From assembly GCA_964429815.1 (NCBI GenBank), contig CAYSCM010000001.1, positions 32,001 to 96,000 of the forward strand: a stretch of DNA of 64,000 bases, read 5' to 3'. This DNA comes from an uncultured Candidatus Saccharibacteria bacterium. GTDB lineage: Bacteria; Patescibacteriota; Minisyncoccia; Phycocordibacterales; CAYSCM01. Under the pieces are notes generated by a model that ran no database searches, was not told the DNA's origin, and saw only the letters and a program-made list of their open reading frames with translations. Both the position numbers and the translations under genes were made by a program. Shown here in pieces: positions 5,395 through 64,000 of this stretch (positions are counted from its first letter, which is position 1; each line of letters starts with the position of its first letter).

Positions 5395-6299
5395 CTTCTC
5401 CACGCGCTCAGGTCGCGCCCGGTAAATGCCTCGAGTTTTTGCAGTTCGGGTTCATAGCGAGCGCGGAGGGCTTCTTTGAGCTTCGGGTCGAGCGTCCCGT
5501 AGCTAGCTTCCCCGGTCCCCGCCCTCGTGTCGATGGAGCGCACTACTTTTTGGTGGAGCGGCGTTTTGCGGAAGAGGGAGAGGAGGGGCTCTCCGAATGG
5601 CAGGGCTTTGAGTAGCTTCCGCGCCCTGAGCGCGTGTCTGCGCAAGAGTGTCGCTCCGGCGGAATTTATGGTCGTGGCGAGCGAGGGCGGCACGAACGAG
5701 GCATCGACGCCGATGAAAGAAAAGATATCTCTCATATATTTTTTTGGGTCGGCACGCATATCGTCATAGAACGTAATGAGTATCTGGTCGCGGGAAAATA
5801 CCTTGAGATAATTTTCGAGGTGCTTCATATAGAAGCTCTCCTCGATAAACGACGGTTTAGTTTTAATAATTTCCTCAAGGGTTGGGAGCTCATGTGCGCC
5901 CTTTAGCTTCGTGTACATGTAGTGGGAAAAAAAGCGCTCCGTAGGGTTTCGCAATACCGCAATGATCTTCGCTTTAGGAAAATGTGTACGGAGGCGCTCC
6001 GGCACCTCGGGTGCGTGAATATAGATAGGAGTGACTTCTCCGTATACCCTCTTCCCTACACAGTGACCAAAATGTTCAAAATACCCTTCGAGAGCGCCGT
6101 TGTATTTTGTTTTCCCCACCAAATCAGTGCGCCAGAAACTTTGCGTCGTGTTAAAAAAGTTGAGCTCTTTGGGTTCGGAAACACAGACCTCGGGGTGCTC
6201 TTTGAGACATTGGTGGAGCCAGGTGGTGCCCGTCCGCTCCGGACCAATCACGAAGAAATCAATGGAAAAAGGCTTTGCTGTAGATGAAATGGTACTCAT
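5391..6299 (-). CDS. sulfotransferase family protein
   Basis: 5'-PSB-like FFVIGPERTGTTWL and 3'-PB-like LRNPTERFFSHY PAPS-binding motifs. Confidence 0.75.
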   Translation of the reverse strand: MSTISSTAKPFSIDFFVIGPERTGTTWLHQCLKEHPEVCVSEPKELNFFNTTQSFWRTDLVGKTKYNGALEGYFEHFGHCVGKRVYGEVTPIYIHAPEVPERLRTHFPKAKIIAVLRNPTERFFSHYMYTKLKGAHELPTLEEIIKTKPSFIEESFYMKHLENYLKVFSRDQILITFYDDMRADPKKYMRDIFSFIGVDASFVPPSLATTINSAGATLLRRHALRARKLLKALPFGEPLLSLFRKTPLHQKVVRSIDTRAGTGEASYGTLDPKLKEALRARYEPELQKLEAFTGRDLSAWRS

Positions 6300-6931
6300 G
6301 AGGCCGTCGGGATGGATTCCTTGTCGCGGTTTGAGAAAAACAGGTAGTCGACGATGGCGTGGAAGAAAACCGCGTGAAGCGCCTCAACGGGACCGTAGGC
6401 ACCTTTTCCTGTCTCAATGATTATCTTGTGGTGACAGAGGCTCTTCGCTTTGCCTCCGTCAAAACCAAGAACGCCTATCGCCGTGCCGCCCTTAGCGCAT
6501 ATGTACTCGATCGCGCGAAGCACATTGGGGGAATTGCCACTTGCGGAAATGACGATGAGCACATCGTCGGGACGAAAAATGTGCTTAAGCTGGTCCGCAA
6601 AAACGTTCTCGTAGCCGACATCGTTCCCGAGCGCCGTCACGGCGGCGATATTGTTGAGCGCGTGAATACGAAACGGCTTTTCTTCCGTACCACCCCCGTT
6701 CGTGGTGAGATCGGCCGCAAAGTGAGCCGCCATGGCAGCGCTCCCCCCGTTGCCGGCGATGTAGATCGTAGAGCCCCTCTCCCGGGCCTTTTGAAGCACG
6801 TCGATAATCTCCTCGACCGCTTTGGAATCTACGGCGGAAGCAAGCTCGAAGGCATGCGCAAGATACCCTTCCATAAATTCGGGTACCGATCCTTTTGTCT
6901 TTTGATAGATGGTATCGACGTGTCCTCTCAT
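6296..6931 (-). CDS. gmhA: SIS-domain sedoheptulose-7-phosphate isomerase (GmhA-like)
   Basis: IYIAGNGGSAAMAAHFAADL and VISASGNSPNVLRAIEY motifs. 4-nt overlap with the next gene. Confidence 0.7.
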   Translation of the reverse strand: MRGHVDTIYQKTKGSVPEFMEGYLAHAFELASAVDSKAVEEIIDVLQKARERGSTIYIAGNGGSAAMAAHFAADLTTNGGGTEEKPFRIHALNNIAAVTALGNDVGYENVFADQLKHIFRPDDVLIVISASGNSPNVLRAIEYICAKGGTAIGVLGFDGGKAKSLCHHKIIIETGKGAYGPVEALHAVFFHAIVDYLFFSNRDKESIPTAS

Positions 6932-7932
6932 AGCGTTGTGAGCACCCCGCGGATGAGCTTCCCTTCCTCGAGGTCTTTGAGGGCGGCTCCTATCTCGTCG
7001 AAGGAATACTCTTTCGTAAGTAACTTATCCAAGCACATGACCTTCGGGTTTTCAACGTATTCACGCGCGTAGCGAGGAATGTCGCGGTCGAGCTCGCTCT
7101 CTCCGCCCCAGGTGCCGTAAAGCTTTTTGCCCTTGATGAGCCCGAAAGGGTTGATCGATATGGTTTCCCCGGGCGCAAGGTTTCCTGCAATAACGACGGT
7201 CCCGGCGTCCTTGACCGCGCGGTAGGCGCTCTCCATGGCGCCCTTGTTTCCCGAACACTCGACGGCCACATCGAAATCCTTTCCCTGAAACTCTTCGGCA
7301 GAGATCGCTTCATCGACGCCGAGCTCCTTTTTCGCATGCGCGAGCTTCCACGGAACGACGTCGATCGCGGTAACGTGAGCACCCTTCATGACGGCTCGAA
7401 TGAGTGCACTCGCTCCGATCCCCCCGATGCCGAATATAACCACTCGTTTGCCGTTGAGGTCTCCTAGGCGGTCGATGATACCCATGCCGGTCGGCACCGC
7501 GCACCCAAGAAGTGCCGCAATCGCGGGCTCCACCCCTTTTGACACCTTGGTGACACGATTCTCTGAGACGACCGCAAGCTCGGTAAACGTCGCCACGGAG
7601 CCACCGTTTACCTTCCCTTCTTTGCTTTGATACGTCGGCACCGGAGCGGATATACCCTCTCCAAGGATCCAACTTGCAACCACATAATCTCCGCTCCTTA
7701 CTTTCTGCACGCCTTCTCCGGCCGCGACCACCTCCGCTGCGGCTTCATGTCCCAATAAGTGGGGAATATATTCCGCTCCTTTCCTGCCGCGGATTTCATT
7801 GAGTTGGCTGTGGCAAAGTCCTGTCGCTAGCACTTTAATAAGTACCTGCCCCTTTTGAAGGGAGGGAACCTCAAGCTCCTCGATGGAGAGCGGTCCACCG
7901 ACGACGCGGAGTACTGCAGCGCGCGTTTTCAT
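6928..7932 (-). CDS. zinc-type (MDR) alcohol dehydrogenase family oxidoreductase
   Basis: GLCHSQLNE, GHEAAAEVVAAGEGV and GIGGIGASAL motifs. Start MKTRAAVL at 7932 is preferred over the track start at 7998. Confidence 0.75.
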   Translation of the reverse strand: MKTRAAVLRVVGGPLSIEELEVPSLQKGQVLIKVLATGLCHSQLNEIRGRKGAEYIPHLLGHEAAAEVVAAGEGVQKVRSGDYVVASWILGEGISAPVPTYQSKEGKVNGGSVATFTELAVVSENRVTKVSKGVEPAIAALLGCAVPTGMGIIDRLGDLNGKRVVIFGIGGIGASALIRAVMKGAHVTAIDVVPWKLAHAKKELGVDEAISAEEFQGKDFDVAVECSGNKGAMESAYRAVKDAGTVVIAGNLAPGETISINPFGLIKGKKLYGTWGGESELDRDIPRYAREYVENPKVMCLDKLLTKEYSFDEIGAALKDLEEGKLIRGVLTTL

Positions 7933-7933
7933 G

Positions 7934-8587
7934 CTAGGGGATAAACCAGTAGTAGTCACCCGTGTAGCCGACCTCGGCGAAGAGTTTTTTCCAATCATCG
8001 ACAGATAGGATGGTCTTTGCAGTAAGATTCCACTTCATCATGCGATCCTTCTCTTCTTCATGGTGGTAGGCGTCGACGGTAATGAACGAGTGTTTTCCTT
8101 TCACACGCTCAATCTCTCGAAGAGCCTCTTTACACTCAGGCAGTGGTAGGTTGTGAATGGTGTTAATCGAAATCACGAGATCGTAGGATTTATCCGCAAA
8201 TTGACTAAGATTTCTTGCATCTCCAACCGATACTGCGCCCGCAATTGAGGGCATGGCATTTTCGATAGCGTAGGAGGAAACATCAATACCGCGAACCACC
8301 ATGTGGGGAAGCCAATAGAGAAAATCATTAAGCATAAATCCCTTAGCACACCCGACATCAAGTACCGAAGAGTTGTTGTTGAGTCCGTAGTAATTTATGA
8401 AATCCCGAACCACCGGTACCCACCTCCCATCATAGCGGAAGCCGCCGTAGCCCTGATCCCTGGTGCCATCAAAAAACTCCCTGCCAAACTTTCGGGCAGT
8501 AGCAACATCCTCAGGAGACTTTTGTCCTCGAGCTTCAATGTTGCGTTTGGCTTTTGGATATTTCGAAAGAAGATCGATTTCTGCCAT
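7934..8587 (-). CDS. class I SAM-dependent methyltransferase
   Basis: VLDVGCAKGFMLNDF motif I. Confidence 0.7.
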   Translation of the reverse strand: MAEIDLLSKYPKAKRNIEARGQKSPEDVATARKFGREFFDGTRDQGYGGFRYDGRWVPVVRDFINYYGLNNNSSVLDVGCAKGFMLNDFLYWLPHMVVRGIDVSSYAIENAMPSIAGAVSVGDARNLSQFADKSYDLVISINTIHNLPLPECKEALREIERVKGKHSFITVDAYHHEEEKDRMMKWNLTAKTILSVDDWKKLFAEVGYTGDYYWFIP

Positions 8588-8596
8588 AGTGGTTGG

Positions 8597-10366
8597 TTAT
8601 TTTTTTTCGGGAAGAAGCTTAACCATCATGTTGTCATTGAACTCTTTTCTTGCAAGTAGCGGCTCGGGATCCTCGAGCGGCCGACCGAACTTTACCTGCG
8701 GGATTACGCGGTGCTTCGGGTTAATCTCGATGTTACAAAACACAGGCCCCCTCATCGCGAGCACCTTCTTAACTCCCCCGCTCAACTCGCGGTTCTTCTT
8801 GATCGTAATGGTTTTGAAGCCAAAGGAGGAAGCAATTTTGGCAAAGTCTGGGAACGCAAGTCCTCCCCCTTCCGAAGACGCAAGATACGCCGAATTAAAC
8901 CACTGATCTTGAGTCTGCTGTATCATACTGTAGCCGTGGTTATTCAATACAAAAATCTTGATCGGAAGTTTGTGCTTGAGAAGGGTACTTAACTCTTGCA
9001 AATTCATTTGGAGTGAACCATCTCCGGTTACACAAATAATTGATTTCTTGTTAAGCGCCAGGCTTACCCCAATGCTCGCCGGCAAAGCCCACCCCATCGC
9101 GGTGTTGTTCCAATCGTGGTAAAGACGCTGACCTTTCTTGAAGGAAAATCCCTGCATCATCCATGCGACCGTGCAGCCGGTATCAATGACCATTACTTCG
9201 TTCTGACGCGTGTAGCGAGAGAGCTCCTCAACAAATACATACGGATTGACCCCTTTCTCTTTGTAGTACGCGGGTGGGCACATGGGATATTTTTTCTTCC
9301 ATGCGGCAATACGTCTAAGCCAGGGTGAGATGTCGTTTTTTGGCAAACGTGCGGCGTGCTTTTGAAATGCCTTCAGCAGCTCTTTTGCGTCACCGGAGAT
9401 ACGCACATCGACTTTCAGGCCAAATTTTTTAAACTTCTTAAGTTCGTAGGGGTCAATATCGATGACTATCTTTTTTGCCTCTCGCGCAAACGTGTTGGGA
9501 GGACTACCCGTCGATTTGGTATCAAGACGGCTTCCGATTGAGAGGATCATGTCAGCGTTCTGGACGGCAAAATTGGCAAACCGCGTGCCGTGAGTGCCAA
9601 AGGTGCCGATGCGAAGTGGATGACTCTCTGGCAGGAGATCCCCTGCCCCCCATGTGAGTGCCGCAGGAAAGCCGAGTGTTTCCAAAAGTGAGATGGCCTC
9701 TTTTTCGGCCCCCGCGAGGTGGATTCCCCACCCAAACACAACGACGGGGCGCTTCGCCTGCCGTAGATAGTTTATGCTTCGAGCTACATCAACCGGCGCT
9801 TTCTTCTTCTCGACGGAGGGTGTAAACGAGGGAAGCTCTCCTGGATTAATTTCTCTGCGCTGAATGTCGTCGGGAATATCGAGCACTACGGGTCCTGGCC
9901 TACCACTTCGCGCCAGAAAGATCGCTTTCTCAAGCTCGTAGCGTATGCGCCTCTCATCGGTGATGAGTATCGCGTACTTAGTGATAGGACGATACATTTC
10001 GACCGTTGCCGTTTCTTGAAAACCCACTTGCCGCACGTTGGTATGACCTTTCATCCTAAAGGTGGCTACTTGGCCGGTAATAAATATGACGGGTACCGAA
10101 TCGTAGTAGGCGGAGCACACTCCCGTGATCATGTTCGTAGCACCTGGCCCTGAGGTGGACATCGCTACACCGAGGCCACCCGTGGCCCTCGCGTACCCGT
10201 CGGCAGCCATTGCCCCCGCTTGCTCGTGTCCTGGACAGATGACCTCCATTCCCCCCGTGCGCGCCACCGAATGAATAAGGTGAAGGGATGCTCCGCCGGA
10301 GATGGCAAAGACATGCTTCACCCCTTCTTTGCGGAGAACCTGTGCTACGTAGTCGGTGAGCTTCAT
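8597..10366 (-). CDS. thiamine-diphosphate enzyme of the acetolactate-synthase large-subunit family
   Basis: 589 aa with three-domain ALS architecture: N-terminal GVKHVFAISGGASL and C-terminal GDGSLQMNLQELST ThDP motif. Confidence 0.8.
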   Translation of the reverse strand: MKLTDYVAQVLRKEGVKHVFAISGGASLHLIHSVARTGGMEVICPGHEQAGAMAADGYARATGGLGVAMSTSGPGATNMITGVCSAYYDSVPVIFITGQVATFRMKGHTNVRQVGFQETATVEMYRPITKYAILITDERRIRYELEKAIFLARSGRPGPVVLDIPDDIQRREINPGELPSFTPSVEKKKAPVDVARSINYLRQAKRPVVVFGWGIHLAGAEKEAISLLETLGFPAALTWGAGDLLPESHPLRIGTFGTHGTRFANFAVQNADMILSIGSRLDTKSTGSPPNTFAREAKKIVIDIDPYELKKFKKFGLKVDVRISGDAKELLKAFQKHAARLPKNDISPWLRRIAAWKKKYPMCPPAYYKEKGVNPYVFVEELSRYTRQNEVMVIDTGCTVAWMMQGFSFKKGQRLYHDWNNTAMGWALPASIGVSLALNKKSIICVTGDGSLQMNLQELSTLLKHKLPIKIFVLNNHGYSMIQQTQDQWFNSAYLASSEGGGLAFPDFAKIASSFGFKTITIKKNRELSGGVKKVLAMRGPVFCNIEINPKHRVIPQVKFGRPLEDPEPLLARKEFNDNMMVKLLPEKK

Positions 10367-59904: not shown

Positions 59905-60666
59905 TCAGAGAGGCCTGACCCGGACCTTCACATCGACCGTAGTCGAGGTCGCTGTAAACGGACGAGGCCACGTGAAGGTGAGCGTGTTACTCCCCTGCGC
60001 AGGGAGCTCTCTCACGACCGTGCGGGACGCCGCCATTGCATTGCCGTTTTCGTTGAAGATAACCGCGGTCGCCTCGATGCTTTGTATCGGCCGAAGTGAG
60101 GTGTTGCTGATGGTCACCGTGAGCTTGGGAGAGGCGCCCGCCTCGGAAAGTCCTCGCTCCCCTATCAAAATACTTTTAGCAGGATCGTCGGCTAGGGTGA
60201 AATTTTGTACGGGCGAAAATTCGAAGAAGGTGCGCGAGGGGGTTCGATTCCCCGTCGTTATGCCCGGTTCAACGATGACGTTAACCTGGCCTGGCGAGAG
60301 GAATGTGGTCCCCTTACGCTCCACGACGAGGATGTTTCCCTCATCGTAGAGCTTGAAATCGTAGGGAAAGGAGAGAACAGCACCGCTCTCATTGGGATTG
60401 TTGACGTAGGCGATCGCCGTCCACACCCCCGGCGTTACCTCGACGGAGCGTGCCCACATGACCGTGGCTGGGGATGTTTTGAAGGGGCAGATTTTCTTGC
60501 AAGCGCCACCGCAGTCAATTCCCTCTTCCCTGCCATCTTGTCTGCCGTCGGAGCAGGTCGGCGCCGTGGAGAGGAGTGAGTACGCGATACCCCCAAAAAG
60601 AAGCAGAAGAACGAGTAGTATGCCGCTTACGTAGAGGCCCTTGCGGCGATTAGCCCAGGCTGACAT
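59905..60666 (-). CDS. membrane-anchored extracytoplasmic protein (hypothetical)
   Basis: Start MSAWANRRKG at 60666, one N-terminal TM helix and a Cys-rich segment CSDGRQDGREEGIDCGGACKKIC. The track start at 60699 lies inside the terminator. Confidence 0.55.
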   Translation of the reverse strand: MSAWANRRKGLYVSGILLVLLLLFGGIAYSLLSTAPTCSDGRQDGREEGIDCGGACKKICPFKTSPATVMWARSVEVTPGVWTAIAYVNNPNESGAVLSFPYDFKLYDEGNILVVERKGTTFLSPGQVNVIVEPGITTGNRTPSRTFFEFSPVQNFTLADDPAKSILIGERGLSEAGASPKLTVTISNTSLRPIQSIEATAVIFNENGNAMAASRTVVRELPAQGSNTLTFTWPRPFTATSTTVDVKVRVRPL

Positions 60667-60684
60667 GGGAAGAATAGTAACACG

Positions 60685-60715
60685 AAAAAAACACCTCACT
60701 TTGAGGTGTTTTTTT
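60685..60715. terminator. terminator of the 23S-5S unit (bidirectional hairpin)
   Basis: AAAAAAACACCTCA ctt TGAGGTGTTTTTTT. Confidence 0.7.
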
Positions 60716-60730
60716 GACTTTTAAATCCCC

Positions 60731-60840
60731 TAACCTGGCGGCTACCTACTCTCCCCTTGCGAGTACCTAGCGGCGTAGCGGGCTGAAAGCGAGGGTTCGC
60801 AGCTTTCAGAGCCGCAGGCCTGTTCGAGGCCGAGGCGGGG
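60731..60840 (-). pseudogene. 5S rRNA-like element lacking the 5' ~25 nt and carrying an extra internal hairpin
   Basis: 37 nt identical to the 5S 3' end (60731-60767 equals 60914-60950). It then diverges but stays alignable (GCCCGCTACGCCGCTAGGTAC versus GCCCGCTAGCGCCGATGGTAC). Inserted hairpin CTGAAAGC...GCTTTCAG. Confidence 0.5.
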
Positions 60841-60875
60841 TCACGCATAAAATGCAGCAGCATTTTATGCGTGAC
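60840..60875. repeat. perfect 16-bp palindromic hairpin
   Basis: GTCACGCATAAAATGC agca GCATTTTATGCGTGAC. Confidence 0.85.
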
Positions 60876-60914
60876 TAACGGCATGTCCCGTCCAAAATGT
60901 TAGTTAGAAACTAT

Positions 60915-61022
60915 AACCTGGCGGCTACCTACTCTCCCCTTGCGAGTACCATCGGCGCTAGCGGGCTTAACGGCCGTGTTCGGAATGAGAACGGGTGTTT
61001 CCCCGCCGCCAAACCACCAGAT
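60915..61022 (-). rRNA. rrf: 5S rRNA
   Basis: Minus strand: CTGGTGGTTTGGCGGCGGGGAAACACCCGTTCTCATTCCGAACACGGCCGTTAAGCCCGCTAGCGCCGATGGTACTCGCAAGGGGAGAGTAGGTAGCCGCCAGGTT. Helix I closes with G-U pairs. Flanked by the 12-bp inverted repeat 60889-60900 / 61057-61068. Confidence 0.85.
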
Positions 61023-61073
61023 TATAAATTCCAACTATTTTCGATCTCTAAGTGTGACATTTTGGACGGATTC

Positions 61074-61119
61074 TCGGAATGAGAACGGGTGTTTCCCCGC
61101 CGCCAAACCACCAGATTAT
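61074..61119 (-). repeat. orphan duplicate of the 5S 5' half
   Basis: 46-nt perfect direct repeat of 60980-61025. Confidence 0.85.
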
Positions 61120-62388
61120 GAGATTCAAAAAGTCGGGTTCGGCAGCCGACTTCCTCGATAGGATGAGGAAGATCGGCTGCCGCCCGCGCAAGGACGTGAG
61201 CAGTTGAGCGGGGCGCTCCTCCCGAGCGGCCACCATTCCCATCGCAGTGCTAAAGCGCTTCTTAGAATGGTCGCGGAGGGCGACACCATTCCAGCTCCGC
61301 AAAGGGTCCGTGCACGCTTCTTTCCCACGTCCGAAAAGCGAAAACAAAGAACTTAACGTTTCGAAGCGTCCGAAATCCGGGTAGATTTCGGCCACCAGTA
61401 AAACGTCAAGCGGGTTAAAAAAGTAACGAAAATCATATTCAATCAATTGCGACATGCAGATTCCCTGACAGGAAACTCGACGTATTAGTACGCCTCGGCT
61501 CAATCCGTTGCCGGACTTCCACCTGGCGCCTATCAACGTAATAGTCTCTTACGGGTCTCAACGAGTCCTCATCTCAGAGTTGGCTTCTTGCTTAGATGCT
61601 TTCAGCAATTATCCATGCCGAACTTAGCTACGCAGCGTGCTTCTGGCGAAACAGCTGCCACACCAGAGGTTCGTCCATTCCGGTCCTCTCGTACTAGGAA
61701 CAGATCTCTTCAAGACTCAACGCCCATGGTAGATAGGAGACCAACCTGTCTCACGACGGTTTGAACCCAGCTCGCGTATCTTTTTAATTGGCGAACAGCC
61801 AAACCCTTGGGACCTTCTCCAGCCCCAGGATAAGATGAGCCGACATCGAGGTGCCGAACGGTACCGTCGCTATGGACGCTTGGGTACCACTAGCCTGTTA
61901 TCCCCAGAGTAGCTTTTGTCCGATAATCTTCCCCCGCATCTAATGCGTAAGGTCGGTTCACTTTGCTCCGCTTTCGCGCCTGCTCGGCATGTACGCCTTA
62001 CAGTCAAGCTCCCTTTTGCCAATACACTATCGGCACGGTTTCCATTCGCGCCTAGGGAACCTTAATAGACTCCTCCGTTACTCTTTAGGAGGATAGCGCC
62101 CCACTAAAACTGCCTGCCATGCAGTGTCCCTCATCGTTTTTGCCGACGAGGTTAGAGACTATATGTTGTCAGGATGGTATTTCACTGGCGAGTCCACACT
62201 CCCCGGAAGGAATGCTTCAACCTCTCCCATCTATGCTGCGCAGAAAAAACATAGCCCCACTACAAAGCTACAGTAAAGCTTCTGGGGTCTTTTCGTCTAA
62301 CCACGGGTAACCGGCATCTTCACCGGTATTGTATTTTCACCAGGCTGATCCTCGAGACAGTCCCCCAGTCGTTACACCATTCGTGCAC

Positions 62389-62428
<40 letters not shown>

Positions 62429-63158
62429 GATTATAGTTATCGCCGACATTCACCAGGGCTTGCATAGCCCAGCACTACACATAAATGCATAGCACCATCC
62501 ATGCTTGACCTTCTGGCATTGGTCAGGTGTCACCCCCTATACATCCTCTTACGAGTTCGCAGGGAGCTGTGTTTTTGGTAAACAGTCGCCAGGAGTACTT
62601 TCGCTGCGGCCCCGCCGACTTGCGTCGAAAGGGCAGGCCTTATTGCTAACGTACGGCCGCTTTTTTGCCGAGTTCCTTGAGGATCAATCACCTGTTCGCC
62701 TTGGTCTACTCGACCTGACCACCTGTGTCGGATTACGGTACGGTCTCGTGTTTGTTATGCTTAGAGATTTTTCTTGGAAGCGTGCTCCCATGCGTAAATC
62801 CTCCGTAGAGGATCTCCCCGTGATGCTCGGACTTGCGACTCCCGGATTTTCCTAGAAGTCATCCTCACACCCCAGACACCAATCCAATAAGATGCGCATA
62901 GTACAACCCTTCGTCCTCTCATCGCACAAACACAAGGTCATGGAATATTAACCATGCATCCATTAGGTACGGCTTTCGCCATCCCCTTAGGACCGACTAA
63001 CCCTTGGCTGATCTTCATCGCCAAGGAAACCTTGGTCTTTCGGCGTGGGGGAGTCTCACCCCCATTGTGGTTACTCGTGCCGGCATTCTCACTTCGCAAC
63101 GCTCCACGCTCAGTTACCCTCGCGCTTCATGGCGGATGCGAACGCTCTCCTACCGCGT

Positions 63159-63336
63159 TATGTGTTTCGTTGAGGAGCCGAGGATGGCTCCTCGGCTATT
63201 AGTCTTCTTCGTCGTTATAGATGAACGGTATAGGTCCAAACATTGACCAGACCGCGACCGCAATGACGTAGATTGCAAACCAGTCGTCTTCCAACATGGC
63301 TTCACCTCTTTTGTACTTTCCTCAACGAAACACACA
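63159..63336 (-). other. intervening sequence (IVS) replacing 23S helix 45
   Basis: The E. coli hairpin GCAGCGACGCTTATGCGTTGTTG is replaced by about 175 nt. The insert is closed by a 16+2 bp stem (63159-63176 / 63319-63336) between CCGAAACTGAGGG and GGTAGGAGAGCGTTC. Confidence 0.7.
63199..63297 (-). CDS. candidate 32-codon mini-ORF inside the 23S IVS
   Basis: Own translation: MLEDDWFAIYVIAVAVWSMFGPIPFIYNDEED. SD GAGGTG lies 5 nt upstream. Stop TAA is followed by the 9-bp hairpin 63176-63197. Confidence 0.3.
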   Translation of the reverse strand: MLEDDWFAIYVIAVAVWSMFGPIPFIYNDEED

Positions 63337-63417
63337 ACACCCTCAGTTTCGGTACAACGCTTAAGCCCCGATTATTTCCGGCGCAAGATCTCTCGATGAG
63401 TGAGCTGTTACGCTTTC

Positions 63418-63449
<32 letters not shown>

Positions 63450-64000
63450 TCATTGTCAGAGAAATTTCACCTCCTTAAGATGCACTGAGCGTTGATTTTG
63501 GGACCTTAACTTGAGATCTAGGCTCTTCCCTTTTTGACCACCGGAGCTTAGCCCCCGGAGTCTAACTGCGTGGTAGTGGAGAACGGTATTTGGAGTTTGA
63601 TAGGATTGACGAGCTTTCGCCCTATTCAATCCTTCCAGTGCTCTACCCCCGTTCTATAAACCACACGCCAGCCCAAAAGCTGTTTCGGAGAGAACCAGCT
63701 ATTACCAGGTTCGATAAGCTTTTCACTCCAACCCACAAGTCATCCGAATGCGTTGAACGACATACCGGTTCGGGCCTCCCCACTCCTTTCGGAGTGGTTC
63801 ACCCTGCTCATGGGTAGCTCACCTGGCTTCGGGTCGTATACGCGCTACTTAGTCGCGCTATTCACACTCGCTTTCGCTACGGCTTCGTCCGACAAAGGAC
63901 TTAGCCTCGCAACGCGCATACACTCGCCGGCTCATTCTTCAATAGGCACGCGGTCACCCGGAAGGATAGAAGCACCCAAGACTAGCCGATGGGTCGTTGC

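Follow-up and report, generated by a model that had tools for sequence, protein, structure and literature searches.

A complete 5S rRNA gene nested between two pieces of an ancestral 5S gene in a CPR bacterium, probably a duplication or insertion scar

Introduction

A complete 5S rRNA gene that lies between two 5S-like pieces raises the question of what the outer pieces are, i.e. the two halves of a split gene that still works around the gene nested inside it, or the debris of a rearrangement. This arrangement stands at the end of the only 23S-5S operon seen in the window, i.e. the whole 64-kb stretch of DNA that we analyzed, from an uncultured CPR bacterium. A preliminary description of this DNA had listed six elements at the locus, from an orphan 5S 5' half, here called (i), to a 5S-like element, here called (vi). 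All six are found on the minus strand, and their occurrence by chance is not expected.

Results and discussion

Anatomy of the locus

The 23S rRNA gene is the upstream gene of the operon, with a match to RF02541 that covers model positions 552-2925, and the elements of the nest follow it on the same strand (Table 1). In addition to (i) and (vi), we use X for the filler between (i) and the inner 5S, Y for the filler 3' of the inner 5S, and U and D for the ancestral upstream and downstream 5S flanks. Two features that the preliminary description had omitted are an outer flank stem (61133-61120/60730-60718) and a terminator hairpin (60715-60685).

Table 1. Features at the end of the 23S-5S operon; positions are those of the window.
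Feature	Position	Strand	Details
23S rRNA gene	61464..64000	-	5' end cut by the window edge; Rfam RF02541, 2011 bits
Ancestral upstream 5S flank, 5' arm of the outer precursor stem	61120..61133	-	ACTTTTTGAATCTC
Fragment (i), ATAA + 5S nt 1-42	61074..61119	-	Perfect copy of 61025-60980
Upstream arm of the 13-bp stem bracketing the inner 5S	61057..61069	-	CCGTCCAAAATGT; 100% complementary inverted repeat
Inner helix I extension, 5' arm (precursor stem)	61022..61036	-	AGTTGGAATTTATAA; alignment columns 19-33
Intact inner 5S rRNA gene	60916..61021	-	Rfam RF00001, 81.3 bits
Inner helix I extension, 3' arm	60901..60915	-	TTATAGTTTCTAACT
Downstream arm of the 13-bp bracketing stem	60888..60900	-	ACATTTTGGACGG
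Perfect 16-bp palindrome, 4-nt loop	60840..60875	-	Stable hairpin in the predicted transcript fold
Fragment (vi), 5S 3' part	60731..60839	-	Repeat and alignment analysis
Ancestral downstream flank, 3' arm of the outer precursor stem	60718..60730	-	GGGGATTTAAAAG
Operon terminator hairpin, 14-bp stem	60685..60715	-	Inverted repeat; 3' arm ends in seven U
Conserved 253-aa ORF directly downstream	59905..60666	-	Synteny anchor used to find relatives
Junction 31-mers of the nest			CATTCCGAGAATCCGTCC, CCAGGTTATAGTTTC, CGCCGCTAGGTACTCG

The two inverted arms around the inner 5S pair as had been reported, and form a stem of 13 rather than 12 bp (61069-61057 with 60900-60888, 100% complementary); the arm occurs nowhere else in the window, where 0.06 matches are expected by chance. 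The perfect 16-bp palindrome at 60875-60840 is likewise present, is unique in the 64-kb window, and is expected zero times in shuffled sequences. In the modeled transcript this palindrome is a stable hairpin and not a canonical terminator, because no U-run follows it. One arm of the palindrome weakly resembles the Y arm (11/16 identical).

Terminator-like sites are absent between the 23S gene and 60715, and the sole terminator follows (vi). This hairpin is missed by a simple terminator scan and gives weak Rfam terminator-type alignments, and the nearest relative (locus L002, see below) has an equivalent hairpin at the same place. Rfam searches at E<=10 over 60600-61470 return no match to an intron or intervening-sequence family, while permissive thresholds applied to the region and to single fragments yield only the inner 5S plus chance-level matches. 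Searches of the window, of the relatives' loci, of viral contigs, and of plasmids give no match to the filler, i.e. X, Y, and the 5' part of (vi); the plasmid matches are all to the inner copy and come from ordinary 5S genes. Specifically, the viral contigs contain neither the palindrome nor the (i)/X junction, a pattern in which the upstream arm of the 13-bp stem is included.

Only the inner copy is a complete 5S gene

Running the 5S model on the copies, a check suggested in the preliminary description, gives 81.3 bits for the inner copy, 12.5 bits for (i), and no match for (vi). The inner copy, for which a complete 5S had been claimed at 61022-60915, is placed by Rfam at 61021-60916 across RF00001 model positions 1-120, and is the only one of the three 5S pieces to pass the full-model gathering score of 38. 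It shares 99% identity with the L002 5S, and its helix I is extended by a precursor stem (alignment columns 19-33 pair with 139-153). Compensatory changes preserve this stem across 7 loci, and that of the inner copy is compensated in its own way. We infer that the inner copy is a working 5S gene with a matured product. A promoter-like TAGAGA-18-TATAAT at 61050-61021 was considered as a 5S promoter and rejected, because its -10 box abuts the mature 5S 5' end.

Fragment (i) had been called a 46-nt perfect copy of the 5S 5' half, and this is correct: 61119-61074 is identical at 46/46 positions to the ATAA+5S unit at 61025-60980, with the repeat extending to 55 nt at 93%. It holds the 5' strands of helix I and helix II, and helix III up to loop C (CCGA). 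Scanned alone, (i) is recognized as a 3'-truncated 5S that covers model positions 1-47 only (E=1.3), and misses the RF00001 gathering score even when truncated mode is allowed. At 5S position 16, the inner copy and (i) share a G, a lineage-specific derived base where 6/6 relatives have A.

Fragment (vi) is more heterogeneous. Its last 37 nt (60767-60731) are identical to 60950-60914 at the 5S 3' end, and no helix I 5' strand is present, both as previously described. Aligned without gaps at a spacing of 183, (vi) is homologous to the inner copy over 69 nt (81%); 60799-60768 is diverged (7 substitutions and 2 indels), and for 60839-60800 homology is none or doubtful. In the ungapped register, recognizable homology starts at the loop C CGAAC (60799), 3 nt or less from the point where (i) ends. 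No 5S match to RF00001 was found for (vi) at E<=10, in context or alone, truncated mode included.

All nine differences between (vi) and the inner copy fall within 27 of 110 comparable nt, for which a uniform spread would have a probability of (27/110)^9, i.e. ~3e-6 by our own arithmetic. Three clustered substitutions convert a 5/8 match into a perfect 8-bp hairpin at 60809-60783 (CTGAAAGC-11 nt-GCTTTCAG), of which the 64-kb window holds no other copy. The hairpin itself is thus as reported earlier, whereas its description as an insertion depends on the alignment, since the ungapped register has no net insertion and the hairpin there replaces the helix III 3' strand and loop B.

Relatives carry a single plain 5S gene at the same place

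The nearest relative, L002, has a 23S gene 91-97% identical to that of the window, keeps the gene order, and holds a single 5S without fragments, and the loci L003, L004, and L011 are near-identical to it. Overall, nine relatives' loci (the nearest and eight more distant) hold one plain 5S each and zero fragments, and neither fragment of the nest qualifies as a 5S; both results favor the simplest reading of the preliminary description, i.e. decayed partial 5S duplications. A short-word blastn of the 5S gives a single match in every relative locus, and the 5S 3' motif is found once each in six species-representative genomes. A second 5S 3' end was not found in the genome or metagenome records scanned. 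The neighboring-protein search returned no relative between 53% and 100% identity, and the genome and metagenome scans no closer relative, with the metagenome scan re-finding only the L002-type contig.

The flanks of the L002 gene also locate the outer pieces. Fragment (i) with 11 nt of upstream flank matches the sequence that precedes the L002 5S at 98% identity (nest 341-397 vs. L002 9814-9870), and the 3' end of (vi) with the downstream flank is 98% identical to the region downstream of it (nest 704-752 vs. L002 9900-9948). Therefore, (i) and (vi) occupy the position of the ancestral gene. The ancestral layout, which all relatives examined keep, was 23S, spacer, one 5S, terminator, and 253-aa ORF, with the 5S closed by a precursor stem of ~14 bp; the outer flank precursor stem of the nest is also predicted in L002.

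Origin of the nest

We conclude, with a probability of roughly 0.7, that the nest is a lineage-specific partial duplication or insertion scar in a CPR/Paceibacteria-type bacterium, co-transcribed with the operon and discarded. The rearrangement is real and probably non-functional. This reading builds on the anatomy of the sequence, the homology of the flanks, the fragment-free relatives, and the restriction of a complete 5S to the inner copy. A copy of the resident 5S body, from ~5 nt upstream to ~3 nt downstream of the 5S, would have been placed between the two ends of the ancestral gene, embedded in ~170 nt of unrelated filler that forms a two-tier stem of its own. The first 46 nt of the ancestral gene, i.e. 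(i), would remain on the ancestral upstream flank, and its last ~66 nt, in (vi), on the ancestral downstream flank and terminator. Transcription would start at the 23S promoter, run through the whole nest, and end at the terminator (60715-60685), and the transcript would fold concentrically, with the outer flank stem and the (i)/(vi) helix I around the inner stem and inner 5S. Duplex-specific processing of its stem would mature the inner copy to the cell's 5S, and the outer pieces would be discarded as spacer.

A local origin via replication template switching or repeat recombination is most likely. The locus holds perfect direct repeats of 46 and 37 nt and perfect inverted repeats of 16, 13, and 8 bp, and both outer pieces share the lineage-specific bases of the inner copy. 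Replication template switching at quasi-palindromes is described as creating hairpins or making them perfect (PMC8794818; PMC7202029). The inverted repeats found here are like such hairpins, a likeness of pattern that suggests the mechanism, and the three changes that perfect the 8-bp hairpin of (vi) are as expected from template-switch correction (PMC8794818). The identity of (i) and of the (vi) 3' end beside a changed middle needs a very recent event, gene conversion, or selection.

The flanks and filler constrain how the copy arose. A simple tandem duplication, with X derived from U and Y from D, is rejected, as the similarity of X to the upstream flank and of Y to the downstream flank is not above that of shuffled sequences (P = 0.67 and 0.70, respectively). 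The inner flanks are identical to the outer flanks at 23/42 positions and to the flanks of other genera at 21-27/42. Being no closer to the outer flanks than to those of other genera, they exclude a simple recent local duplication that included the flanks. The matrix of inner-flank identities is flat (21-27 of 42), and indicates no specific donor lineage.

These same flanks bear on an alternative that we consider unlikely, in which the cell took up DNA from another Paceibacteria-type lineage, and this foreign cassette, made up of a 5S, the long precursor stem belonging to it, and hairpins trailing behind, became inserted in loop C of the resident 5S; gene conversion would later have homogenized the 5S bodies. 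Inner flanks that differ from the outer ones as much as between genera, and that nonetheless form a compensated stem of the family type, are in line with it, as are the lack of a detectable relation of X and Y to U and D and the distance of at most 3 nt between the end of (i) and the point where homology in (vi) begins, as a single insertion point would give. However, the inner 5S and its proximal flanks (ATAAT and TTA) are of the resident type, the G16 and the 3' G of the inner 5S are common to the outer pieces, and no donor-like sequence was found in the collections scanned. From a donor with such flanks, differences at 5-10% of the 5S positions would be expected, and the scenario thus needs the additional conversion step.

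Predicted fold and the split-gene question

Folding of the nest, as minimum-free-energy structure and as ensemble, predicts a concentric structure (z = -8.9) in which (i) pairs with (vi) around the inner 5S with a probability of ~0.999. The outer flank stem is paired in the minimum-free-energy fold, and the 13-bp bracketing stem is paired in the predicted folds. The preliminary description had proposed that the geometry would let (i) supply helix I to (vi) around a looped-out inner 5S. The geometric part of this proposal agrees both with the predicted pairing and with the location of the two pieces, inside the same flanks as the one 5S of the nearest relative. A role of the 13-bp stem as an "insulator" against mispairing with decoy strands was also considered; scrambling the stem left the predicted pairing unchanged, and the idea was dropped.

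The functional part of the proposal, i.e. a split 5S-like gene, is not supported. When (i) and (vi) are joined, helix I is intact, helix II retains 5/7 pairs with one G deleted, and helix III retains 2/6 pairs in the ungapped register or 3/6 in the gapped one. In loop E, (vi) reads CCGCTAGG in place of the family-invariant strand CCGATGG (GAUGG to GCUAGG). In the gapped alignment, the joined pieces violate ~15 of 76 family-invariant columns, 6 of them in nt 47-75, the sole part that does not depend on the register. As read from the alignments, the virtual outer gene does not preserve the core of 5S helices, loop C, and loop E, and the middle of (vi) is predicted to be remodeled into self-contained hairpins. 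Covariation of (i) and (vi) had been suggested as a further check; relatives carry neither piece, so there is none to score.

We therefore regard it as very unlikely that (i) and (vi) give a used 5S-like RNA or a regulatory two-piece RNA. The pairing through helix I and the ancestral flank stem speaks for such a product, and so does the absence of substitutions in (i) and in the last 37 nt of (vi) against nine changes in the (vi) middle, although short-tract gene conversion or a recent origin accounts equally well for this identity. Against it stand the damage to helix II, helix III, and loop E, the remodeled middle, the failure of (vi) to match the 5S model, and the absence of the arrangement from the relatives examined. 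There is a similarly slim chance that the nested layout as such was selected, with the ancestral flank stem and the (i)/(vi) helix serving as an outer processing clamp or giving a stable two-piece 5S-like RNA with its own role, or with a self-complementing inverted-repeat cassette that could enter an essential single-copy 5S, since it supplies a replacement gene.

Assembly support

Two independent k=31 assemblies from different runs bear on the integrity of the locus. One Logan contig (L012) begins at the first 31-mer past the 37-nt repeat, and another (L001) at the first 31-mer past the 46-nt repeat. Contig ends that lie exactly at repeat boundaries argue against misassembly. The records of 2 NCBI contigs include a 135-aa ORF that spans the (i)/X junction; for the Y/(vi) side, no spurious ORF that crosses it is on record.

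It is thus highly improbable, even more so than a functional split gene, that the locus is in truth a simple 5S and that the assembly took a wrong path through repeats or strain variants to give the nest. The source genome is metagenome-derived, and in L001 the inner 5S body is indeed followed directly by the ancestral downstream flank, i.e. the "simple" path; this could reflect repeats collapsed at k=31, or a simple allele that part of the population does carry. However, 5S parts are joined to unique sequence in X, in Y, and in the middle of (vi), which in any case requires the existence of molecules that carry partial 5S duplications. The contig ends at the 46-nt and 37-nt repeats are those that the nest predicts, the (i)/X junction ORF is found on both NCBI contigs, and the repeats are shorter than the k-mers that would usually be used for final assemblies.

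The least probable alternative is a MITE-like element, a 182-nt unit (61069-60888) that carried a 5S into the resident 5S: its perfect 13-bp terminal inverted repeats do bracket the inner 5S, yet direct reading of the sequence finds no target-site duplication beside them, the arms are single-copy in the 64-kb window, the viral contigs lack the (i)/X junction and the palindrome (patterns that cover the upstream arm only), the genome and metagenome records scanned hold no second 5S 3' end, and the arms are better explained as the outer tier of a precursor stem.

Comparison with known systems

Tandem 5S genes occur at the ends of rRNA operons, e.g. in E. coli rrnD, which has two 5S genes with a tRNA between them. 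The nest is like these in being a local duplication at the 3' end of an rRNA operon, with copies kept identical by concerted evolution. In contrast to the rrnD copies, which are complete and functional, only 1 of the 3 pieces is complete here, and the pieces are nested rather than serial.

Bacterial 23S rRNA can carry intervening sequences that RNase III excises at a stem, leaving a fragmented rRNA, and insertions in rRNA are common in CPR bacteria. A stem-closed insert that is cut out while the rRNA pieces stay paired is what the outer gene would resemble if it worked. Unlike these intervening sequences, the insert here matches no such family and holds a functional gene, and the outer pieces do not pass as 5S.

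The closest parallel is offered by 5S remnants, which are known beside normal 5S genes (Stepanov and Fox 2021, PMC7812874). Like (i) and (vi), these are incomplete, partly diverged, with extra or remodeled segments, located at the end of an rRNA operon by a normal 5S, and judged unable to fold as a 5S. Both (i) and (vi) present the feature that defines remnants in that work, i.e. a recognizable incomplete 5S core beside a normal 5S at the operon end. By analogy, the unusual layout described here resembles a nested form of such remnants. There are three differences. The published remnants lie downstream of the normal gene, each after a putative terminator, and are therefore probably not transcribed (PMC7812874), whereas no terminator separates (i) and (vi) from the operon. 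Second, the nest has one piece upstream and one downstream, which are the two ends of the ancestral gene. Third, the host is a CPR bacterium with one 5S locus seen.

The same study describes 5S expansion segments of 13-109 nt that leave the conserved core intact (Stepanov and Fox 2021, PMC7812874). The outer gene is formally like an expanded 5S, as a segment closed by a helix interrupts it in loop C. In contrast to those cases, the interruption is ~275 nt long and holds a whole 5S, and the 3' core is damaged (9 changes in 27 nt).

Implications

The nest leaves the current understanding of 5S rRNA unchanged. It is a warning for annotation that fragments of 5S next to a genuine copy should not be counted as additional genes. 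It also indicates that an essential rRNA gene, of which no second copy is seen in the window, can be rearranged without loss. Two precursor stems, one inside the other, compete here for the same helix I strands, a natural case that could help to probe 5S processing in CPR bacteria. Finally, the 46- and 37-nt direct repeats predict collapse to a simple gene by recombination, and one assembly may already show the collapsed simple allele.

Structure of the 5S locus

By Rfam scan, the locus is one 5S gene and two 5S fragments, an arrangement we call the nest. A permissive scan of 60600-61470 returns the intact inner copy as the sole 5S match. When scanned alone, the piece on its 5' side (the 5' fragment) yields a 3'-truncated 5S match (12.5 bits, E=1.3), and the piece on its 3' side (the 3' fragment) has no 5S match at E<=10, with truncated matches allowed. 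Of the two copies that the preliminary description had proposed to score with the 5S model, the inner one is thus recognized (81.3 bits), and the 3' fragment is not.

The six-element observation made earlier at this locus is confirmed: a reading of 61400-60500 and the repeat finder recover the perfect 46-nt copy of the 5S start, the perfect 16-bp palindrome and the identity of the terminal 37 nt of the 3' fragment with the 5S 3' end. The inverted repeat around the gene is also perfect, with a length of 13 bp and not 12. Within the 64-kb window, palindrome, 13-bp arm and the 3' fragment's 8-bp hairpin each occur once, and none would be expected by chance.

Features of the rRNA region and 5S locus
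Feature	Position	Strand	Evidence
23S rRNA gene	64000-61464	minus	Rfam; truncated by window edge
5' fragment (5S-start copy)	61119-61074	minus	repeat finder, 46/46 perfect; to 55 nt at 93% with upstream bases
Perfect 13-bp inverted repeat bracketing the intact 5S	61069-61057 with 60900-60888	minus	repeat finder
Intact 5S gene (inner copy)	61021-60916	minus	Rfam, 81.3 bits vs gathering score 38
Perfect 16-bp palindrome	60875-60840	minus	repeat finder
3' fragment	ends 60731	minus	final 37 nt = 5S 3' end; 69 nt at 81%, ungapped register
Terminator closing the operon (14-bp hairpin + U-run)	60715-60685	minus	sequence reading, repeat finder
250-aa-class ORF	window 59905-60666; L002 10001-10762; also L006, L009, L016		
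16S gene	51980-50519	minus	Rfam; ~9 kb beyond 5S, same strand as 23S-5S

The palindrome arm GCATTTTATGCGTGAC and the downstream-arm region of the 13-bp stem ACATTTTGGACGGGAC are identical at 11/16 positions (60840-60900); the two hairpins may have a common origin, with weak statistics. Another long hairpin (61140-61182; 10-bp perfect core, ~18 bp in total) lies just 5' of the 5' fragment in the 23S-5S spacer, and no U-run adjoins its 3' side. The rRNA genes of the window are unlinked and on one strand (64000-48309): 23S-5S, ~8.9 kb of protein genes, 16S, tRNA-Ile(GAT) and tRNA-Leu(CAG). The block between 5S and 16S holds a 253-aa ORF, FtsW/RodA, GT4, a sugar transferase, an epimerase, SecD and SecF. 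A Logan contig, L012, separately spans from the 3' end of 5S to the start of 16S.

A single 5S gene in relatives

Relatives were searched for with the 253-aa ORF directly 3' of the locus (60666-59905), which has no Pfam family, as the anchor. In the protein search, its best homologue outside the source organism is 53% identical, with none between, and comes from a metagenome contig of 402 kb that has near-identical versions in further data sets (L002-L004, L011). Downstream gene order in these loci is that of the window (FtsW/RodA, GT4 glycosyltransferase, sugar transferase, epimerase, SecD, SecF), and the 23S of L002, the nearest relative's locus, is 91-97% identical to the window's. Its layout is 23S, tRNA-Ala(CGC), single 5S, terminator and ORF, and there are two differences between its 5S and that of the window.

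Directly 5' of the L002 5S is TTTTGAATCTCATAAT, the sequence found 5' of the window's 5' fragment, and directly 3' is TTAGGGGATTTAAAA, found 3' of the 3' fragment. Fragment end plus flank is 98% identical to L002 on both sides (57 nt and 49 nt, respectively), while the window's intact copy has the 5S body alone in common with L002. Short-word blastn of the 5S gives one match in each fetched relative's locus and no fragments, and a metagenome scan for the 5S 3' end returned nothing beyond the L002-type contig again. The 5S 3' motif occurs once per genome in 6/6 species-representative genomes carrying it (Zambryskibacteria, Paceibacterota and MAGs labelled Saccharibacteria). The fragment-free single genes and the L002 flank matches mark a plain single 5S gene as the ancestral state; the nest is confined to the window's lineage, with its fragments at both ends of the ancestral gene. 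With one Rfam 5S, two fragments and relatives without fragments, the original reading of decayed 5S duplications is supported.

The L002 tRNA-Ala(CGC) (9491-9566) lies between 23S and 5S; the window's 344-nt 23S-5S spacer lacks a tRNA and does not align with that of L002, and the spacer of L006, another relative's locus, has an apparent tRNA-like sequence by eye. The L002 23S (5620-9328; 3709 nt) includes two blocks of ~219 and ~421 nt that are missing from the window 23S and resemble intervening sequences or introns, which are frequent in CPR rRNA genes. Several Paceibacteria-type lineages have, directly 3' of the 5S terminator, a conserved 250-aa-class ORF that belongs to no Pfam family and carries a membrane segment at its N terminus; other lineages (L013, L015) have a different upstream neighbour.

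Relation between the two fragments

With 5S and the 3' fragment in the ungapped register (spacing 183), the two are homologous from the CGAAC motif of loop C (60799) onward, and identity is at random level 5' of it. The 5' fragment stops 3 nt into the same motif, so that in this register the two fragments resemble a single gene split at nt 46/47. A gapped alignment adds matches upstream (CGAACAGGCC), and the fragments then overlap by at most 19 diverged nucleotides. The hairpin first described as inserted in the 3' fragment does fall inside a 28-nt insertion under the gapped alignment, but not in the ungapped register, where homology begins only at 60799. Under both, the 3' fragment starts in or adjoining loop C.

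Relative to the inner copy, 7 substitutions and 2 indels distinguish the 3' fragment, every one of them within nt 49-75, and there are no changes in its final 37 nt or in the 46 nt of the 5' fragment. Under uniform spread, such clustering of 9 changes has a probability of (27/110)^9, or ~3e-6 (hand calculation). Through three of the substitutions, CCGTTAAG has become GCTTTCAG, which is perfectly complementary to upstream CTGAAAGC. Position 16 is G in the 5' fragment and inner copy and A in 6/6 relatives; a G near the 3' end is common to the inner copy and the 3' fragment.

Folding and the probable working 5S

The preliminary description also suggested that the fragments could pair around the looped-out inner 5S as a split 5S-like gene. 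The nested geometry is real, and such pairing is what thermodynamics predicts: the 421-nt transcript has a predicted concentric fold (-193 kcal/mol, z = -8.9), with a helix I pairing probability of ~0.999 both between the fragments and within the inner copy, and ~0 for crossed pairings. The idea of a functional split gene is not supported. Judged against the Rfam 5S structure line, the outer gene has an intact helix I and keeps the inner five pairs of helix II, with one pair lacking its G, and only 2/6 (ungapped register) or 3/6 (gapped) of the helix III pairs required between its halves. The family-invariant loop E strand CCGATGG is CCGCTAGG in the 3' fragment, and ~15/76 family-invariant columns under this fragment are broken in a gapped global alignment that includes its doubtful 5' part, 6 of them in nt 47-75. 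Its middle is predicted to self-fold into two hairpins. A need for the 13-bp stem in correct folding was dropped, as scrambling its arm left predicted pairing unchanged.

When 5S from seven loci is aligned together with 30 nt of each flank, the flanks form a ~14-bp extension of helix I with compensatory changes at at least 7 of its pairs. The inner copy has a compensated version of its own, with the 13-bp stem outside it (predicted fold, -78.2 kcal/mol, z = -5.7), and the L002 version persists in the outer flanks, which now lie 400 nt from each other. This favours the inner copy as the gene processed into 5S.

We propose that transcription runs from the 23S promoter to the terminator, and that in the RNA the ancestral outer stem would enclose the two-tier inner one concentrically. 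Because RNase III and RNase M5-type enzymes mature 5S, the inner copy would be released and trimmed by duplex-specific rRNA processing enzymes. The fragments, the filler on both sides of the inner 5S and the palindrome would be degraded as spacer.

Assembly support for the nest

Unique filler is joined to 5S parts, which requires that there be molecules carrying partial 5S duplications. In Logan assemblies k is 31, shorter than both repeats (46 and 37 nt), and their contigs should therefore break at the repeats. L012 (run SRR12313482, 8.8 kb) begins exactly at the first 31-mer beyond the 37-nt repeat, where the path leads into the downstream flank. Likewise, the Logan contig L001 (run SRR12313479) begins exactly at the first 31-mer beyond the 46-nt repeat, which is weaker evidence because this start is also the first k-mer past variable base 16. 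In L001 (1-110), an inner-type 5S body is directly joined to the ancestral downstream flank, reflecting either k=31 repeat collapse, with a thinly covered loop clipped, or a coexisting simple allele produced by 37-nt-repeat recombination. A 135-aa spurious ORF spanning the junction of the 5' fragment and filler is recorded on two NCBI contigs (longest 501,704 nt), and the neighbouring ORF also on a 311,824-nt contig. Given the fused unique filler, the exact contig starts and the recurring junction ORF, it is very improbable that the nest is a misassembly.

Origin and comparison with known 5S remnants

Plain tandem duplication including flanks is excluded: the upstream and downstream fillers do not resemble the corresponding flanks, and inner and outer flanks are 23/42 identical, as distant as inner flanks and those of other genera (21-27/42). 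Neither the window nor relatives, viral contigs or plasmids contain a match to the filler. What was copied comprises the 5S body and 3-5 nt to either side of it, with the lineage's own bases, which favours a putative local source over import, unless later gene conversion homogenised the 5S bodies. The locus is made up of perfect direct and perfect inverted repeats, which we infer to be the signature of replication template switching, a process documented in the cases described by PMC8794818 and PMC7202029 to create and perfect RNA hairpins.

An expanded 5S is ruled out by the damaged core and ~275-nt interruption, and a known intron or IVS family by the lack of a match in the Rfam scan of 60600-61470. 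There is no sign of a mobile element, with no target duplication and no other copies in the window or the viral contigs scanned.

Stepanov and Fox described insertion-bearing 5S remnants next to normal 5S at operon ends in Peptococcaceae and Pseudoalteromonas, judged them pseudogenes, and left aside 5S database entries containing internal duplications (PMC7812874). The nest belongs to the same kind of phenomenon, yet differs from these remnants in having one piece on each side of the working gene, in that its pieces represent both ends of the ancestral gene, in that no terminator shields them from transcription, and in its host, a CPR bacterium, where it is the only 5S locus seen. With its 46- and 37-nt direct repeats, the nest could revert to a simple gene via two recombination events.
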